Shown here in pieces: positions 12,559 through 20,991 of a stretch of 27,629 bases of DNA. Origin of the DNA: Desulfobacterales bacterium (lineage in GTDB: Bacteria > Desulfobacterota > Desulfobacteria > Desulfobacterales > Desulfosalsimonadaceae); the NCBI GenBank assembly GCA_007127175.1, contig SKZX01000203.1:1-27629 (forward strand). Reading direction: 5' to 3'. Numbering within the stretch: the stretch's first letter is position 1; each line of letters opens with the position of its first letter. The position numbers were made by a program, and so were the translations under genes. The notes beneath the pieces are model-generated. The model was not told where the DNA came from and searched no databases. It saw nothing but the letters and a program-made list of their open reading frames with translations.

Positions 12559-13311
12559 ATGATGAAAATAATCGGCATCCGGTTCAAACCGGCCGGAAAA
12601 ATATACCATTTCAATTGCGGCGCTTACGTTTTGAAAGTGGGCGACAAGGTGCTCGTGGAAACCGAGCACGGCCTGGGGTTCGGCATTGTGACAACGCCGC
12701 CCGTTGTCATTGATCCGGACCAGTCCAAGCAGCCCCTGAAGAAGATCTATCGCCCGGCGACGGAAGATGATTTAAAGCAGCTTGAAGCCAATACAACAGC
12801 TGAAAACCAGGCATATCAATTCTGCAGCGAAAGCATAAAGTCCCTTGACCTGGAGATGAACCTGTTTGCGGTGGAAAGCAATTTCGAAGGCAGCAAGCTG
12901 ACCTTTTTTTTCACCGCCGACGGCCGGGTCGATTTCAGGAAACTGGTCAAGCTGCTGGTCAAGCAGTTTCGAAGCAAAATTGAAATGCGGCAGGTGGGCA
13001 TCCGGAACCAGGCCAAGATGTGCGGGGGAATCGGGCGCTGCGGCCGCCAGCTCTGCTGCTCCTGCTTTTTGACCAAATTCGACCCCGTAACGATCAAAAT
13101 GGCAAAAAAACAGGGCTTATCCCTGAACCCCACAAAAATTTCAGGTGTTTGTGGCCGGCTCATGTGCTGCCTGACCTTTGAATATGATTATTACGACAAG
13201 GCCAGCGGCACCCATCCGGGAAAGGCGGCTGCGACGGATGAGAAAGCAATGCCGGGGACAAAAAACCACAGGCCTGCGAATCAAAAACAGAAAACGGAAA
13301 AAACAAAATGA
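12559..13311 (+). CDS. ricT: PSP1-domain protein (RicT/YaaT family)
   Basis: FFFTADGRVDFRKLVK, IEMRQVGIR, GGIGRCGRQLCC, LSLNPTKISGVCGRLMCCL. Sits in the classic holB-yaaT-metG order. Confidence 0.9.
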   Translation: MMKIIGIRFKPAGKIYHFNCGAYVLKVGDKVLVETEHGLGFGIVTTPPVVIDPDQSKQPLKKIYRPATEDDLKQLEANTTAENQAYQFCSESIKSLDLEMNLFAVESNFEGSKLTFFFTADGRVDFRKLVKLLVKQFRSKIEMRQVGIRNQAKMCGGIGRCGRQLCCSCFLTKFDPVTIKMAKKQGLSLNPTKISGVCGRLMCCLTFEYDYYDKASGTHPGKAAATDEKAMPGTKNHRPANQKQKTEKTK

Positions 13312-15230
13312 CCGCTCCTTTTTACATAACAACGCCGATCTATTACGTAAACGCCAAGCCCCACCTTGGGCACACCTATACGACCATCGCAACTGATGTG
13401 GCCCGCCGCTACCATGACATGCTGGGCGCGGAAACCTTCATGCTGACCGGAACGGACGAACACGGCGACAAGATTGTCAAGGCCGCGGAAAAAAACGGGC
13501 AAAGCCCCAGGGAATATGCGGACAGGATCAGCCGCCTGTTTGCAGAACTGTGGCCCGAACTCAACATCCACTGCGATCATTTCATACGGACGACGGATGC
13601 GTCCCATATTGCGGTTGTCATCGATATCCTTCAGAAAATCTACGACAAAGGTGATATTTATTACAGCGAATACGAAGGTTTATACTGTTTCGGGTGCGAA
13701 CGCTTCTTCAACGAACGGGAACTCGTTGACGGCAAATGCCCCGATCACGGCACGCCCCCGGATGTCATCAAGGAATCCAACTATTTTTTCAAAATGAGCC
13801 GCTACCAGCAATGGCTGATCGATTCCCTCACGGACAACCCCGACCTGATACGGCCTGCGCGCTACCGGAACGAGGTGCTGTCATTTCTGAAGGAACCCCT
13901 TGAAGACCTGTGCATTTCAAGGCCCAAAAGCCGTCTTCAATGGGGCATCACCCTTCCTTTTGACGACCGTTATGTCACCTACGTCTGGTTTGACGCCCTC
14001 ATCAACTATGTATCCGCGCTTGGCTACCCGGACGGCGAACATTTCAAGAAATTCTGGCCGCACGTTCATCACGTCGTGGCCAAAGACATCCTCAAGCCGC
14101 ACGGCATCTACTGGCCGACCATGCTGAAGGCCGCCGGCATAGACGCTTACAAGCACCTGATGGTGCACGGCTACTGGAACGTTGAAGATTCAAAAATGTC
14201 TAAAAGCCTGGGCAACGTGGTAGACCCCATCTACCTGAAAGAAACCTATTCCACGGATGCCATACGCTACTTTCTCATGCGCGAAATGGTCTTTGGCCTG
14301 GATTCGAGTTTCTCGGAGACATCCATCATCAACCGGATCAATTCGGACCTGGCCAACGATTTGGGCAACCTGTTTTCCAGGGTCCTGGGAATGTTTCACA
14401 AATACTTCAAATCAACGGTGCCGGAATTCGATCCCGACGCAAAAAGCGATTTCCAGCTGGATTTGAAGTCGGATGCCCAAACAGCCATCTCCGATTTCTG
14501 CAAGGCCATGGACAATTTTGAATTCCACAAGGCGCTGGTGGCTGTCTGGGAGTATATCGGGAAAATGAACAAATACGTTGATGTTACGGCCCCCTGGGAG
14601 CTGGCCAAAAAAAAGGAGGCGAAAAAACAGCTCGACACAGTCATCGGCAACCTTCTGGAAGGCTTGCGGGTGGTATCCGGGCTCATTTACCCCGTAATGC
14701 CTGAAACGGCTGCAACCATGCAGAAACACCTTGGCATGGATGCCGAAAAGCCCTTTTACCGGATCCGGGAAATCCGCGAATGGCCGCAAATACCGCCAAA
14801 CCAGGTTTTGCCCAAGGCGGTGAGCCTGTTTCCCAGGATCGACCCGGAAACCATTCTCGGGCCGGCGGCTTCCGGCGAAACGCATGAACCGGCAGCGCCT
14901 ATCGAACCGGAAATCGGATTTGAAGAATTTTCCAGGATCGATTTGCGGGCCGCAACGGTTTTGAAGGCCGAAAAAATACCAAAGGCCGACAAACTGCTCA
15001 AGCTCGAGATAGACCTCGGGAACCACACCCGGACCATCGTGGCCGGCATTGCCAAGTTCTACACCCCGGATGAGCTCATCGGAAAAAGCATTGTCGTCCT
15101 GGCCAACCTGAAACCGGCAAAGCTCATGGGGGTTGAGTCAAAGGGCATGCTGCTGGCCGCCGTGGAAAAAAACGCCTGTTCCGTTGCCGTGCTGGACCGT
15201 GAAATGCCCGCCGGCGCACGGTTGAAGTAA
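13308..15230 (+). CDS. metG: Methionyl-tRNA synthetase with C-terminal tRNA-binding (Trbp111-like) domain
   Basis: TTPIYYVNAKPHLGH (HIGH), GTDEHG, CFGC...CPDH knuckle, YVWFDAL, KMSKSLGN, C-terminal LANLKPAKLMGVESKGMLL. Confidence 0.97.
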   Translation: MTAPFYITTPIYYVNAKPHLGHTYTTIATDVARRYHDMLGAETFMLTGTDEHGDKIVKAAEKNGQSPREYADRISRLFAELWPELNIHCDHFIRTTDASHIAVVIDILQKIYDKGDIYYSEYEGLYCFGCERFFNERELVDGKCPDHGTPPDVIKESNYFFKMSRYQQWLIDSLTDNPDLIRPARYRNEVLSFLKEPLEDLCISRPKSRLQWGITLPFDDRYVTYVWFDALINYVSALGYPDGEHFKKFWPHVHHVVAKDILKPHGIYWPTMLKAAGIDAYKHLMVHGYWNVEDSKMSKSLGNVVDPIYLKETYSTDAIRYFLMREMVFGLDSSFSETSIINRINSDLANDLGNLFSRVLGMFHKYFKSTVPEFDPDAKSDFQLDLKSDAQTAISDFCKAMDNFEFHKALVAVWEYIGKMNKYVDVTAPWELAKKKEAKKQLDTVIGNLLEGLRVVSGLIYPVMPETAATMQKHLGMDAEKPFYRIREIREWPQIPPNQVLPKAVSLFPRIDPETILGPAASGETHEPAAPIEPEIGFEEFSRIDLRAATVLKAEKIPKADKLLKLEIDLGNHTRTIVAGIAKFYTPDELIGKSIVVLANLKPAKLMGVESKGMLLAAVEKNACSVAVLDREMPAGARLK

Positions 15231-15309
15231 CCGGCCAAACCGATGTCCGGACGGGAAAACAGCCTCATTTCAAAGAAACATAAACGATAATCAATTACCA
15301 CGGTAAAGT

Positions 15310-16722
15310 ATGTTCAAGCGAAAGAAAAAACCCGGTGGTTATCGGTTTCAAAACATGGCCACGCCTGCTGCAAAATGGCGCGGCTACCAGAACACCATAC
15401 GGATTCATGATGAAAGAAGACAGGCGCTTCGCCGGATGCCCTGGTATTTCGTTGTGCTGCTGGTTTCTGCCGCGCTGATCCAGGGCGGGTTTTATGTACT
15501 CGATCATCGGATGGCCGCCGCACCCAAAGCGCCGGCATCCCTCTACCCGCCTGACGTGGAGCCCCTTGACCGGGAAGGGATTCGCAAAATCCTCACACCA
15601 GACCGTTTTCTCAACATGGCTGAAAAAAATATTGAAATCCGGACCGGTGGAACCCATTACCAGATTTACACGAGCATCGACCCGGACCTCCAGAATGCCA
15701 TTATCCGGTCTCTTGACACCCGGCATGCCAACAGGATCGGCATTGTCGCCATCGAGGCGGATACCGGCCGGGTTCTGGCACTGGTTTCGCACAACGATGA
15801 CGACCCGGATCAGAACGCCTGCCTGGCGGCCGATCTTCCCGCCGCAAGCTTATTCAAGATTGTCACGGCCGCAGCAGCCATGGAAGCCGGCGGGTTTGAG
15901 CACCAGAGCCGGATGGCCTTCAACGGGGGAAAATTTACCTTGTACAGGCGGCAGCTGACTGACCAGGAAAACCGGTACACCAATTATTCGAACCTGAAAG
16001 CCGCCTTTGCCGAATCGATCAACCCGGTTTTTGGAAAGCTCGGGAAAAACGAACTGGGCAAAGATATCCTCACCGACTATGGCCTGGCGTATTATTTCAA
16101 CCAGGGTATTGATTTTGACCTGCCCGTGGACCAAAGCACCTTGAAAATATCCGATACACCTTACAATTGGGCGGAAATCGCCTCCGGCTTCAACCGGACC
16201 ACAACCATATCGCCCCTGCATGCCGCCCTGATCGCCGCCTCCGTTGTAAACGGCGGGCGCATCATGGAGCCGTCCATTGTCGATGTGGCGGCCAGGGAAA
16301 ACCGGACGGTTTACCGGCGGCGGCCTGCAATGGCAGCACGCACGGTTGAACCCGGAACACTGGAAGGCCTGGACACGCTCATGAATGCCACCATCACCCG
16401 GGGCACCGCAAGAAGTCTGTTTGCAGGGTCTTCAAGGGACCCGGTCCTGTCGAAGCTCCGCATGGGCGGAAAGACAGGCGCACTCAACAACAATGCCAGA
16501 CAGATCCGTTATGACTGGTTTACCGGGTATGCCCTGGACCCTGAAGGCTCGGGAAAAATCGCCATCGGTGTCATCGTTGCCCACAAGGAATACATCGGTA
16601 AACGGGCTGCCACATATTTCAGGCAGGCGGTGGCCGCCTATTTCAGAGACCGGCTTTCGCAAACGGAAAACATGCAAAGGACAGACAATATTGCCGGTGA
16701 AAACAATAAAAAACCTGCATGA
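15310..16722 (+). CDS. Membrane-anchored penicillin-binding protein (transpeptidase domain), 470 aa
   Basis: N-terminal TM helix; SLFK (SxxK), SIN (SxN) and KTG motifs, in order. Confidence 0.88.
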   Translation: MFKRKKKPGGYRFQNMATPAAKWRGYQNTIRIHDERRQALRRMPWYFVVLLVSAALIQGGFYVLDHRMAAAPKAPASLYPPDVEPLDREGIRKILTPDRFLNMAEKNIEIRTGGTHYQIYTSIDPDLQNAIIRSLDTRHANRIGIVAIEADTGRVLALVSHNDDDPDQNACLAADLPAASLFKIVTAAAAMEAGGFEHQSRMAFNGGKFTLYRRQLTDQENRYTNYSNLKAAFAESINPVFGKLGKNELGKDILTDYGLAYYFNQGIDFDLPVDQSTLKISDTPYNWAEIASGFNRTTTISPLHAALIAASVVNGGRIMEPSIVDVAARENRTVYRRRPAMAARTVEPGTLEGLDTLMNATITRGTARSLFAGSSRDPVLSKLRMGGKTGALNNNARQIRYDWFTGYALDPEGSGKIAIGVIVAHKEYIGKRAATYFRQAVAAYFRDRLSQTENMQRTDNIAGENNKKPA

Positions 16723-16726
16723 GCAG

Positions 16727-19700
16727 ATGCGCGCCGTAGCGACAACAATTATTCGCGTTGCAAGGAAGCTGAACCAAACCGTTTTTTTCGGGCGCAGTCT
16801 CCAGACTATACCGGAAAACGCCCTTGTATTGTTTCCTTTCCACACCAACCGTCTTTCCTGCGGTTTCACAGGGCTAATCGCATTCAACACAGCCGGAAAA
16901 CCGGCTCCATCGGTCAACCCAGCGGATTTTCACGCCCGCCTCGACCGATCCGCTGAAAATGGTTTTACAGCTTGCAGCAACCTTTCTGCGGATGATTTCA
17001 TCGCCGCCTATCTTTGTGGCGACGATCATGTGTCCAACCTACAGGAATCCATACAAAAACTGAAACAAAACCATTTTTTCCACCGTATCTACAACGGCGC
17101 GGACCTTTTTGAGGCGTTGTCCGGCTTCACCGCACGGCTCGAAACCGTGTTGCAGGCTGAATCCGGACATCTGGCCACCCAGATGGGCGTCCTTCCCTCA
17201 CAGCAATTTGACGCCATGTCCACGCGCATCGAAAAACTCAAAGATGCCCAATGGTGCCTGAAAACGGAAATACTCGACAATGTCCTGCGGGTCAGGGCCC
17301 TTGCCGGCGACGAATCAAACCGCATGAACGCCACAGGCGTTTCCGCCGCAAGACAGATCAATGCCGTATTGAACAGCATTGACCGCCTGGAAGTCCGCGG
17401 CCGGGATTCAGCCGGCATTTCCCTGATGTTTGTTGTTGATGACAGCCATTACAAGATTTTTTTGGATGAAATCGCCGCAGCAGGCCTCTCGGGGGAATTT
17501 ACCAAACGCACGAACCAGGGTGTTTTAACCAACAAGGGAATTTCCACGAACAGGGAAAACGGCCGCACCGCCATTGCCATGACCTACAAGGTGGCGGCAG
17601 AAATCGGCTCCCTGGGCGACAATGTTCGTTTCATAAGGGATCAGATTCGGCAGGACCCCCTCTTCACCGCCCTTATTACACTGCCCCGGGTTTATTTCAC
17701 GGTCTCGGCCCATACCCGCTGGGCCTCGGTCGGCGCGATCACCGAGGCCAACTGCCATCCCGTTGACAACCGGATCATGACCCCGGTTGCCGGGCGGCCT
17801 GGCATCATCCATGTCTGCTTAAACGGCGATATCGACAACTACCAGGCATTGAAGGCGGACCATGAAAAAAGGGGGCTGCGCTTTTTCGAGGATATCACCT
17901 GCGACACCAAGATCATCCCCGTGCACATCGAGCACTACTACAGGCAGGGACATGTCGTGGAAGAAGCGTTCCGCCTCGCGGTCAATGATTTTGAAGGCGC
18001 CCATGCCATTGCCATGCACACCGACCTAGCCCCGGGGAAATTTTTCCTGGCTCTCAGGGGAAGCGGCCAGGCCATATTCATCGGCCTTGCCCCGGACCAC
18101 TACATCCCCACCTCCGAAGTGTACGGCTTTGTCGAAGAAACAACACGCTTTCTGAAAATGGACGGGGAGGCCGTCAGCCCGTCTGCCCATGGAAAAGGCA
18201 TTACCGGACAGATATTTGTCATCGACCAGGCCGGTAAAGGCGGTCTGGACGGGATCAATGCCATGTTTTACTGCGGTTCCCCCATACCGCTGAGCGACGG
18301 AGACATTCGCACAACCCAGCTGGTTTCCAGGGACATCGACCGCCAGGACTTCAACCACTATTTTCTGAAGGAAATTTCAGAAGCACCGGCATCGGTTCGA
18401 AAAACCATGGCCAACCGCTGGAAGATCTCACAGAACGAAGACGGCCGCTACTATGAAGTCCACCTGGATGATTCATGCATGCCCGTATCCGTCAGGTCGG
18501 CGCTCCTGGAAAACAAAATCCGTCGGATCGCCTTTATCGGGCAGGGAACCGCAGGGGTGGCCGCCCTGGTCTGCGCCAACCAGCTGCGCCATTACCTGGG
18601 AGACGGCGACATCCGGATTGAAGCCATGAAGTCATCGGAGCTCAGCGGGTTCATGATGGATGACAGCCGAACCGCCGGCATGGAGGGCACTCTCCTGATA
18701 CCCATCAGCCAGTCCGGCACCACCACCGATACCAACCGAACCGTGGACATGGTTGCAAAGAAAGGCGGCAGCATCATCTGCATTGTCAACCGGCGCGACT
18801 CGGATTTGACGTTCAAAAGCCACGGGGTGATTTACACGAGCTCGGGCAGGGACATCGAAATGTCGGTGGCCTCCACCAAGGCATTCTATTCCCAGATCAT
18901 CGCCGGCGCCCTGCTCGGGCTGCACATAGCCGGGTTGACAGGCAAGCGGGGTCGCCATTTTATCTCAAACGAGATCAAAGAAATGATCGGGATACCCGGT
19001 ATGATGGAAACCGTGCTTTCCACGACCGATGCGATCCGGGCATCCGCCAACAGGCTGGCATTGCAGCGGACTTACTGGGCGGTGGTGGGAAGCGGGCCCA
19101 ACAAGGCGGCCGCCGACGAAATCCGGATCAAACTGAGCGAATTGTGCTACAAAACCATATCCTCGGATTTCGTGGAGGACAAGAAGCACATCGATCTTTC
19201 CAGCGAGCCGTTGATCATTGTCTGTGCGGCGGGCACAAGGCGGCGCGTGCTGGGGGACATCGTCAAGGACACGGCGATTTTCAAGTCCCACAAGGCCCTT
19301 CCCGTGGTCATCTGCGATATGCACGAGGACCGGTTTGACCCCTATGCCGAAGATGTCTTCCGCGTCCCTCAGGTCAGCGAGCACTTTGCGCCCATATTGA
19401 ACACGCTGGTCGGGCACATCTGGGGCTACTACGCAGCACTGGCCATCAATGAAGGGTCCCGGTTCCTCTATGATTTCCGGGAGGATATCCAGTCCATGAT
19501 CCGGGCTTACACCGCCGAAAACCTCGACATATTCGAAATCGCCCTCGAGGAAACCTTCCGGGAAAAAATCCTGCGATTTTACCGGGATTTTCGAAAAAAG
19601 CAGCAGGAAAACCACCTGCCCGCCACCATGGGGCTCAAAGAAGCGACCAACCTGACACTGCTGCTCAAGTATCTCGCCGGCCGCCTGCCGATCAATGATT

Positions 19701-20458
19701 TTGAGTTTGATTTCGGCGTCAAGGGGACGGCCAAGAACATGTTCGCCCTGTTTTTTGATGCACTGGGGGAAGCCATCAACGTCATGGCCCGCCCGGTGGA
19801 CGCCATCAAGCACCAGGCGAAAACCGTGACGGTGGGCACTAGCCGGATCGAAGAAAGGGCCGAGGGGCTCCTGTTCGATATCCTGGCGGAAAAAGGCTTC
19901 GGCGTCGAGCATCTCACGATTATAAACGTGATGGTTTTGCGCAATATCCAGAAAATCCTATCCGGCATCAAGGGACTCACCCTTTACCGGGTATCGGGCG
20001 TGAACCTCCTGGGGGAGCCCACCGACCAAACCACCATCTCCGTTATTGAGAAAAAGGGTACGTCCGCATCCATCGCCTCGCGCAGCGAAACCGATCAAAG
20101 CCTCAAGGGCTCCAAGCGGATAATCGTCCGCCAGGGCAATATCTACCTTGGAAAGGGGCGCAAGGATGGCCGGTCCGTCCTGATCATACCCGTCATCTCG
20201 GGTGACCCGGCGCAGCCCAACATGATCGAGTACCTGCTTTTGCTTGAAGTCGCCTTTAAAACCGACGTGGACCTGTCAACCCGTGTCAAGGCATTGGGCG
20301 GCAAGCACGAGCACATCAAGAACATCGTCCAGGAAAATTCCGTCCCATGGAAGGACGAATACCTGGACATGGTCCCCATGGATGAACTCTTTGGCCTTTC
20401 GGCGGAAAAAGTCGCAGAAATGATCGTTGAAAAAACGGGAAAAAAGGAATGGCCCTAA
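16727..20458 (+). CDS. glmS: Giant glutamine--fructose-6-phosphate aminotransferase-like protein (~1243 aa)
   Basis: CGFTG, LEVRGRDSAG, HTRWA, NCHP, LNGDIDNY, YFLKEISEAP, ISQSGTTTDT, SVASTKAF, KLSELCY, HQAKTVTV. The first plausible start is ATG 16727, 4 nt after the PBP stop; 16385 overlaps the PBP gene. Confidence 0.88.
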   Translation: MRAVATTIIRVARKLNQTVFFGRSLQTIPENALVLFPFHTNRLSCGFTGLIAFNTAGKPAPSVNPADFHARLDRSAENGFTACSNLSADDFIAAYLCGDDHVSNLQESIQKLKQNHFFHRIYNGADLFEALSGFTARLETVLQAESGHLATQMGVLPSQQFDAMSTRIEKLKDAQWCLKTEILDNVLRVRALAGDESNRMNATGVSAARQINAVLNSIDRLEVRGRDSAGISLMFVVDDSHYKIFLDEIAAAGLSGEFTKRTNQGVLTNKGISTNRENGRTAIAMTYKVAAEIGSLGDNVRFIRDQIRQDPLFTALITLPRVYFTVSAHTRWASVGAITEANCHPVDNRIMTPVAGRPGIIHVCLNGDIDNYQALKADHEKRGLRFFEDITCDTKIIPVHIEHYYRQGHVVEEAFRLAVNDFEGAHAIAMHTDLAPGKFFLALRGSGQAIFIGLAPDHYIPTSEVYGFVEETTRFLKMDGEAVSPSAHGKGITGQIFVIDQAGKGGLDGINAMFYCGSPIPLSDGDIRTTQLVSRDIDRQDFNHYFLKEISEAPASVRKTMANRWKISQNEDGRYYEVHLDDSCMPVSVRSALLENKIRRIAFIGQGTAGVAALVCANQLRHYLGDGDIRIEAMKSSELSGFMMDDSRTAGMEGTLLIPISQSGTTTDTNRTVDMVAKKGGSIICIVNRRDSDLTFKSHGVIYTSSGRDIEMSVASTKAFYSQIIAGALLGLHIAGLTGKRGRHFISNEIKEMIGIPGMMETVLSTTDAIRASANRLALQRTYWAVVGSGPNKAAADEIRIKLSELCYKTISSDFVEDKKHIDLSSEPLIIVCAAGTRRRVLGDIVKDTAIFKSHKALPVVICDMHEDRFDPYAEDVFRVPQVSEHFAPILNTLVGHIWGYYAALAINEGSRFLYDFREDIQSMIRAYTAENLDIFEIALEETFREKILRFYRDFRKKQQENHLPATMGLKEATNLTLLLKYLAGRLPINDFEFDFGVKGTAKNMFALFFDALGEAINVMARPVDAIKHQAKTVTVGTSRIEERAEGLLFDILAEKGFGVEHLTIINVMVLRNIQKILSGIKGLTLYRVSGVNLLGEPTDQTTISVIEKKGTSASIASRSETDQSLKGSKRIIVRQGNIYLGKGRKDGRSVLIIPVISGDPAQPNMIEYLLLLEVAFKTDVDLSTRVKALGGKHEHIKNIVQENSVPWKDEYLDMVPMDELFGLSAEKVAEMIVEKTGKKEWP

Positions 20459-20991
20459 ACAAAACACATCTGCTCATCGGCGCTGCAATCGCGGTCGTCC
20501 TGGCCGTGACAATCGGATGGGCCGTGTTTCATTTCATGATCCGTGAAACACGGGTCATTGATTATGCGGACGAAGCATACACATGGAATGCCCTTGCGGG
20601 AACCAGTCGCGGCGACTTGCTGGTCCGGGGTGAAAAGGTCGATGAAATACGCGATGACGTCGAAAAATTGATACACGCCCTGAACCGGTCGGACAAGGAC
20701 CCGGAAGGCTTCCGGGTCCCCGAAGGGAAAGAACCGGCAGACCTCCCTAAACTGAAACTGCTGGACAGTCAAAAAGGACGGGTTACGGTCGAAGTGATCA
20801 ATGCGGAGATCCTGACCCAGCGAATGGGCTCAACAGGCGCCAGTGCTTTCCTTGCGGTAGCCACCTTTACACTCACGGAGCATGCGGATATCGACGCGGT
20901 TAAATTTGTTTTCAAGGAAGGCGACCACGCCATACCGGGGATATACCAAAGGGAAATGTTCAGGCGGTACTGGAGAATTGACGCCCGTTAG
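20449..20991 (+). CDS. Membrane-anchored protein with a GerMN-like C-terminal domain, 180 aa
   Basis: N-terminal TM helix. MGSTGASAFLAVATFTLTE...IDAVKFVFKEG resembles the GerMN GS..E....NTLTE..I..V pattern. Overlaps the glmS stop by 10 nt. Confidence 0.6.
   Translation: MALNKTHLLIGAAIAVVLAVTIGWAVFHFMIRETRVIDYADEAYTWNALAGTSRGDLLVRGEKVDEIRDDVEKLIHALNRSDKDPEGFRVPEGKEPADLPKLKLLDSQKGRVTVEVINAEILTQRMGSTGASAFLAVATFTLTEHADIDAVKFVFKEGDHAIPGIYQREMFRRYWRIDAR

Follow-up and report, generated by a model that had tools for sequence, protein, structure and literature searches.

A putative propeptide before the catalytic cysteine of a double-length glucosamine-6-phosphate synthase from Desulfobacterales

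Glucosamine-6-phosphate synthase (GlmS) catalyzes the committed step in the supply of amino sugars for peptidoglycan and lipopolysaccharide, and is a textbook N-terminal nucleophile (Ntn) amidotransferase. The chemistry of Ntn glutamine amidotransferases requires the free alpha-amine of the catalytic cysteine itself (Cys1), and to our knowledge every characterised GlmS or GFAT exposes this residue by loss of the initiator methionine alone. The leader that precedes Cys1 in Bacillus subtilis PurF is short, 11 residues, and PurF maturation is tied to an iron-sulfur (Fe-S) cluster; the mature chain of the glutamate synthase large subunit (GltB) begins at Cys1 once a presequence of a few dozen residues has been removed. 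Here we describe a GlmS gene from a Desulfobacterales bacterium, located on a stretch of 27,629 nucleotides (contig SKZX01000203.1; hereafter "the window"), in which the catalytic cysteine is residue 57, whereas in bacterial GlmS it is residue 2. The enzyme is probably made as a proenzyme, with a leader of about 56 residues that would be cut off before glutamine is used, most likely by self-cleavage.

Bacterial GlmS (EC 2.6.1.16; E. coli structures 1xff, 1jxa, 2j6h and 4amv; family TIGR01135) and the protein described here have in common the Ntn glutaminase fold, the glutamine-site and sugar-site residues and two SIS domains, and the latter is apparently the only enzyme of its genome that makes glucosamine-6-phosphate (GlcN6P). 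It differs from bacterial GlmS in being twice as long, in scoring below the family cut-off, and in carrying a helical insertion after strand beta-1, another insertion ahead of the AKTVTV tail motif and one more domain at the C-terminus. Its leader recalls B. subtilis-type PurF (1gph, 1ao0; Arabidopsis GPRAT2, 6lbp), a class-II Ntn amidotransferase that is likewise translated with residues ahead of the cysteine; in these enzymes and their eukaryotic relatives the propeptide is removed autocatalytically, exposing Cys1 (PMC7056826). PurF leaders are poorly conserved, whereas the leader of about 56 residues found here has a conserved, structured core, and the synthase domain and the pathway differ as well; no link between the GlmS leader and an Fe-S cluster was seen here. 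Glutamate synthase (GltB and Fd-GOGAT; 1ea0, 1ofd) has a class-II amidotransferase domain whose Cys1 aligns to residue 57, but this is an unrelated enzyme in an unrelated domain context, and no sequence similarity between GltB and the GlmS leader was detected. The double-length architecture and the invariant residues are found together in long-form GlmS proteins of 1130-1190 aa (for example P0173, P0199 and P0222) and in the leaderless Desulfobacterales loci L051, L077, L089 and L096; unlike the leader-bearing form, these proteins start at Met-Cys and need methionine removal only. The PurF of the same genome (480 aa; L002:576-2018, contig C107 of G000) has, as in the B. subtilis type, a leader before the cysteine, with 19 residues that end in H-R-E-A and are followed by C-G-V-F-G. 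This organism thus makes two or more of its Ntn amidotransferases with a leader.

Start codon and leader of the long-form gene

All coordinates are those of the window, and all features lie on the + strand. The codons TCC-TGC-GGT-TTC-ACA-GGG encode S-C-G-F-T-G, with the TGC at 16859-16861 and serine directly before the cysteine. An earlier, sequence-only reading of this DNA had pointed out this cysteine without an adjacent methionine, and the observation is confirmed. In-frame start codons upstream of the TGC are TTG 16829 (-10 codons), ATG 16727 (-44), GTG 16697 (-54) and TTG 16691 (-56); the first two had been named in that reading, and the last two had been missed. TTG 16691 is probably the start, because a Shine-Dalgarno-like AAAGGA (16676..16681) lies 9 nt upstream, because the closest homologues have their start (M-(L/F)-P-A-K-T) at the corresponding position, and because the 1255-aa database entry for the same protein (P0002) uses it. 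ATG 16727 has no site comparable to this AAAGGA. The leader would therefore have 56 residues rather than the 44 expected from ATG 16727, and the cysteine would be residue 57. Residues are numbered from TTG 16691, which gives a gene of 1255 codons (16691..20458; 1243 codons from the alternative start at ATG 16727). The internal TTG 16829 was rejected as a start: it still leaves ten residues before the cysteine, and a start at -10 was seen in few relatives. Although the reading frame is open back to 16385, this stretch falls within the upstream gene, whose stop codon (TGA, 16720-16722) places TTG 16691 in a 32-nt overlap with it.

Several observations bear on whether the leader could be an artefact, with the true start directly before the cysteine and obscured by a sequencing error or an unusual initiation codon. 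Only the fact that Met-Cys relatives exist speaks for such an artefact. When 78 related loci anchored on the cysteine were read directly from genome DNA, 73 of them, most from other genomes, had at least 16 open codons upstream of the cysteine; 72 of these were bounded by a stop codon and had at least 42 open codons, and one was cut by the end of its contig. Among the open loci the codon before the cysteine is variable and is not a start codon (TCC here; TGC, AAC, GCC, TCA and others elsewhere). Conserved leader residues also use all synonymous codons, for example CCC (27), CCG (19), CCT (13) and CCA (13) for the proline at -8 and TTT (34) and TTC (31) for the phenylalanine at -9, so the constraint on the leader acts on the protein. 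The reading of the 78 loci, which is independent of any gene caller, and the codon usage together rule out a sequencing error or a mis-called start, and we regard the probability of such an artefact as negligible. These sequences indicate a leader that is both conserved and translated.

The leader, a putative propeptide (residues 1-56, 16691..16858), is conserved within its clade and directly precedes the nucleophile in the primary product, as do the leaders of PurF-type self-processing precursors. An alignment of 115 homologues anchored on the cysteine defined a core, (V/I)-(Y/F)-F-G-(R/K)-x-P-x-x-V-P-x-x-S-(I/L)-(I/V)-F-F-P-(Y/C/L)-x-x-N-x-L-x-Cys, which is conserved across Desulfobacterales. 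The most constant positions are G-23 (101/110), P-16 (95/113), F-9 (103/114) and P-8 (111/114); position -1 is variable, mostly C, S, N, G or Q, with F and A also found. Mean pairwise identity is 35% in the core, 31% in the helical insert and 57-68% in the catalytic parts of the protein, and falls to 12% in the first, helical part of the leader (positions -40..-27).

We modelled residues 1-557 with AlphaFold on a 97-sequence alignment, obtaining a mean predicted local distance difference test score (pLDDT) of 93.6 and a predicted template modelling score (pTM) of 0.87. In this model residues 3-26 (16697..16768), which are poorly conserved in sequence, are predicted to form a basic amphipathic helix (pLDDT 84-89). 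The core (16778..16837) is predicted to form two strands, residues 30-33 (the VYFG motif) and residues 44-47, followed by F48-P49; the strands are modelled at pLDDT 83-89. Two residues ahead of the bond that is putatively cut, Ser56-Cys57, lie residues 53-55 (N-R-L, 16847..16855), the only segment with a pLDDT below 50. No counterpart of residues 1-56 was found among solved class-II amidotransferase structures, the alignments to which start at residue 57. Covariation between the leader and the mature domains (mutual information with average product correction, 169 sequences) gave 14 pairs in the global top 500, versus 26 expected; the highest-ranking ones draw on columns of the helical insert that evolve fast.

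The glutamine site and the identity of the enzyme

In the model Cys57 is the true equivalent of Cys1. Structural alignment with VIA-align matched residues 57..545 of the model with the E. coli glutaminase 1xff (residues 1..239); 237 of the 239 residues could be aligned, at a Z score of 30.2 and a root-mean-square deviation of 1.7 A. For nearly all class-II amidotransferases listed, the alignment began by pairing residue 1-3 with residue 57; residue 1 or 2 of PurF, glutamate synthase (GltS), AsnB and EgtC was matched to this position. The TGC at 16859..16861 thus encodes a residue that superimposes on Cys1 of 1xff, 2j6h, PurF, GltS and AsnB, and that lies, as expected of the alpha-beta-beta-alpha Ntn fold, where the first central strand begins.

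The remainder of the glutaminase site is intact, as the sequence-only reading had claimed. C57, G58, R236-G237-R238-D239-S240, H341, R343, W344, N378, G379 and D405 show no variation across the 97 aligned sequences. R-G-R-D-S (residues 236-240, 17396..17410) corresponds to the region of E. coli R26, with a weak local alignment to E. coli RLEYRGYDSAG. H-T-R-W (residues 341-344, 17711..17722) contains the equivalents of E. coli R73 and W74, N378-G379 (17822..17827) the oxyanion-hole residues N98-G99, and D405 (17903..17905) is the equivalent of D123, which binds the alpha-amine of glutamine; R343 and D405 are thus the glutamine-binding arginine and aspartate. The alternative raised earlier, that the protein is an ammonia-dependent enzyme, is disfavored by this invariance.

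By its sequence the gene is a non-canonical, double-length form of GlmS of about 1250 aa that is uncharacterised, rather than an ordinary GlmS, a correction to the sequence-only reading. Pfam recognizes one SIS domain and gives a weak match to GATase_6. The protein scores below the cut-offs of the GlmS profiles TIGR01135 (208.7 bits, cut-off 418.05) and NF001484 (228.3 bits, cut-off 381), and the alignment to the NCBIfam glmS profile starts only at profile position 65-70. E. coli GlmS aligned to residues 68-590, where HTRW, N-G, D-T, SQSG.T.DT, VASTKAF, K-L-S-E and K-K-H are kept. Between strand beta-1 and RGRDSAG the model has a helical insertion (residues 77-233, 16919..17389) with no counterpart in canonical GlmS. 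Over 6000 proteins in the database, with lengths near 1250 aa, were matched at E <= 0.001; the best 120 are full-length relatives without exception.

The protein has two SIS domains and keeps the residues of the fructose-6-phosphate site (E. coli S347-Q348-S349, T352, K485, E488 and H504). The corresponding segments here, SQSGTTTDT, KLSE and KKH, are nearly invariant in the 97-sequence alignment; E. coli S303 is replaced by alanine, and T76/H77 are replaced as well. The free C-terminus of canonical GlmS closes the sugar site. Here the chain does not end at an A-K-S-V-T-V-E tail with K603; after a further insertion it has a conserved HQAKTVTVG motif that resembles the C-terminal tail of GlmS, and about 230 more residues lie behind it. 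The internal A-K-T-V-T-V lies at about 19790-19830 of the window (residues ~1005-1015 of P0001), and the ~230 residues that follow are conserved.

The low TIGR01135 score, the three large extra modules and the replacement of S303 and T76/H77 could be taken to mean that the protein is not the GlmS of the cell but an amidotransferase/isomerase for another substrate, with GlcN6P coming from elsewhere. We consider this very unlikely. The protein retains the sugar-site residues (S347-T352, K485, E488, H504) as well as the AKTVTV tail motif, and the gene stands in a housekeeping context. Genome content also argues against it. We examined 40 relatives, each at least 90% complete, from 17 families of the same order. 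The long form was present and canonical glmS absent in 39 of them; the remaining one has a canonical glmS (845 bits) but no long form. A sample of 150 genomes from the phylum included 132 with canonical glmS and about a dozen with the long form only, and in none of the 150 did the two occur together. No nagB was found in the window's genome or in four high-quality carriers of the long form, one of them closed. Orthologues also occur in cultured species, among them Desulfocicer vacuolatum DSM 3385 (L065) and Desulfamplus magnetovallimortis (L094). The window's genome is 84% complete, so the missing canonical glmS in this genome alone is weak evidence, while the pattern among its relatives is not. 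The long form is the sole GlmS candidate in these genomes, and its distribution supports a putative role as the organism's glucosamine-6-phosphate synthase.

Leaderless relatives and maturation of the enzyme

A search over 1.8 billion cluster representatives revealed that the long family is wider than the leader-bearing clade. About 30 distant subfamilies, 1130-1190 aa in length, begin with M-C-G-I; one of these is from Planctomycetota, and most others have no recorded source organism. In trees built solely from the columns after the cysteine, a branch with full support has all leader-bearing sequences on the same side.

Among the 78 related loci read at the DNA level, five have ATG-TGC as the start, each with an in-frame stop codon 2-16 codons upstream and a Shine-Dalgarno site of its own; no remnant of the leader was found in any frame upstream of these five. 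Homologues with ATG directly before the cysteine, which the sequence-only reading had named as grounds for suspecting an error in this DNA, thus exist as a minority, but they are separate lineages with their own translation signals and upstream stops, so they do not indicate an error here. Four of the five could be placed in the tree, L048 being too short. Three form a clade (support 99) nested among leader-bearing sequences, with enclosing sets supported at 95 and 99, and the fourth lies elsewhere. A Met-Cys sequence from Planctomycetota (P0157), with a start known from its gene call, also falls inside the leader clade. Because leaderless loci nest at two places within the leader clade, the leader was gained once and lost at least twice on the DNA evidence, or three times if the called start of P0157 is right.

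Every loss ended exactly at the cysteine, leaving a Shine-Dalgarno site followed by ATG-TGC, and four of the five genomes have no GlmS-like gene besides the leaderless one. Between 5 and 14 conserved positions of the mature protein have changed in leaderless lineages, compared with 2-12 in leader-bearing controls, which is no excess. Convergent mature-domain substitutions in leaderless lineages were absent at a threshold of 93%, and none was convincing at 80%. The leader is dispensable in natural relatives.

The simplest reading of these data is that the leader is removed, because the enzyme evidently works with an N-terminal cysteine in leaderless relatives and leader-bearing ones keep an identical active site. 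The propeptide that the sequence-only reading had proposed is therefore the best supported of its suggestions: the cysteine coincides structurally with Cys1, the residues of the glutamine site do not vary, the leader shows conservation as a translated segment, and Met-Cys relatives without it exist. Translation would yield a GlmS with a leader of about 56 residues, composed of a variable basic helix and a two-strand core ending in F-F-P, and a short, poorly defined linker would join this core to Cys57. Because Ntn chemistry needs the free alpha-amine of Cys57, the primary product should not hydrolyze glutamine until the Ser56-Cys57 bond is cut. The likeliest route would be an attack by Cys57 on the preceding peptide bond (an N-to-S acyl shift), the route taken by other Ntn hydrolases, B. 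subtilis-type PurF among them. Mere capping of the cysteine does not account for the conservation of the leader core, which may serve folding, an assembly checkpoint or the timing of activation.

Four points weigh against a propeptide that is cleaved and discarded. We know of no propeptide in any characterised GlmS or GFAT. The variability of residue -1 means that no strict cleavage motif is evident. The core is better conserved than a throw-away peptide needs to be and could stay in the mature enzyme, and its modelled pLDDT of 83-89 is compatible with a stably docked segment. The last two are also what would be expected if the leader were retained as a permanent structural or regulatory module, in an enzyme that either uses ammonia only or has a Cys57 that is active without a free alpha-amine. 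Such retention seems improbable to us, given that the glutamine-binding and oxyanion residues, which an ammonia-only enzyme does not need, are invariant in 66 leader-bearing sequences, and that lineages without the leader start exactly at Met-Cys with no compensating changes. N-terminal additions, moreover, are known to impair the activity of GFAT (PMC7000685).

If the leader is removed, a separate cellular protease might do so in place of self-cleavage. The absence of a recognizable autoprocessing motif around the variable residue -1 would fit such a protease, and the conserved core could be its recognition element. We consider it unlikely: the conserved neighbors of the gene are metG and a transpeptidase resembling penicillin-binding proteins (PBPs), with no conserved protease among them, the downstream open reading frame (ORF) of 180 aa has no tblastn match in 91 related loci, and the gene context is unchanged in the leaderless lineage L077. 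Leader-bearing Ntn enzymes, notably PurF, process themselves (PMC7056826).

A further elaboration of self-cleavage, possible but in our view doubtful, is that the leader is a zymogen switch. The core would keep the cell's sole GlmS inactive, and self-cleavage would set in on a signal; candidates are the assembly of oligomers, the binding of fructose-6-phosphate and a cue that the extra modules sense. Alternatively, the cut leader would stay bound as a small regulatory subunit. A zymogen switch would be an irreversible post-translational checkpoint on amino-sugar supply and would take the place that the glmS ribozyme or the small RNAs GlmY/GlmZ have elsewhere. No Rfam family matched anywhere in the window, and hence no glmS ribozyme is present there.

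Significance and gene neighborhood

Propeptides are already known in Ntn amidotransferases, but the GlmS leader and the long form appear to be new to the literature that we searched, in which neither a propeptide of GlmS or GFAT, nor the long form, nor the GlmS of Desulfobacter-type bacteria turned up. If our interpretation is right, the Desulfobacterales, an order of environmentally important sulfate reducers, rely on a double-length GlmS with an extra maturation step, and confirmation would extend propeptide-dependent activation from PurF and GltS to GlmS. With confirmation, the natural coexistence of leader-bearing and leaderless versions of one enzyme would make it tractable to ask why a leader is present in some Ntn amidotransferases. 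Confirmation would also correct the annotation of these proteins. They are mostly unnamed or labelled "SIS domain-containing protein", and for this reason genome-based pathway calls may score the organisms as lacking glmS.

The gene directly upstream (15310..16722) encodes a 470-aa PBP-like protein with a transpeptidase domain (Pfam PF00905) and no other, and its 3' end overlaps the start of the leader. The order metG, PBP-like gene, long GlmS (13308-20458 in the window) recurs in Desulfobacterales; tblastn found the PBP-like gene in 55 and metG in 49 of the 91 related loci. No promoter-like site was found between the PBP-like gene and the GlmS gene, and the 32-nt overlap of the GlmS start with the PBP stop suggests that a cell-wall enzyme and the supplier of its amino sugars could be co-translated. 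The 180-aa ORF downstream (20449-20991) overlaps the GlmS stop by 10 nt and encodes an N-terminal hydrophobic helix; it has no Pfam match and may be lineage-specific or not a gene.

The upstream gene differs among leaderless loci. L077, the one locus in which the position of the PBP-like gene was checked, retains it directly upstream. L051 and L089, which are independently leaderless, have in common a different upstream gene, ending in ...R-I-R-(E/A)-L-Y-Q-(R/K)-M. Loss of the leader may thus have been accompanied by changes in gene order in some lineages.

In the same pathway, the glmU profile matched ORFs of about 255-286 aa over the uridyltransferase half only (positions 2-240) and below the cut-off (C166:4576-5301 in G000, with equivalents in G023, G016, G036 and G142). 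The acetyltransferase half must therefore be encoded elsewhere or by another protein.

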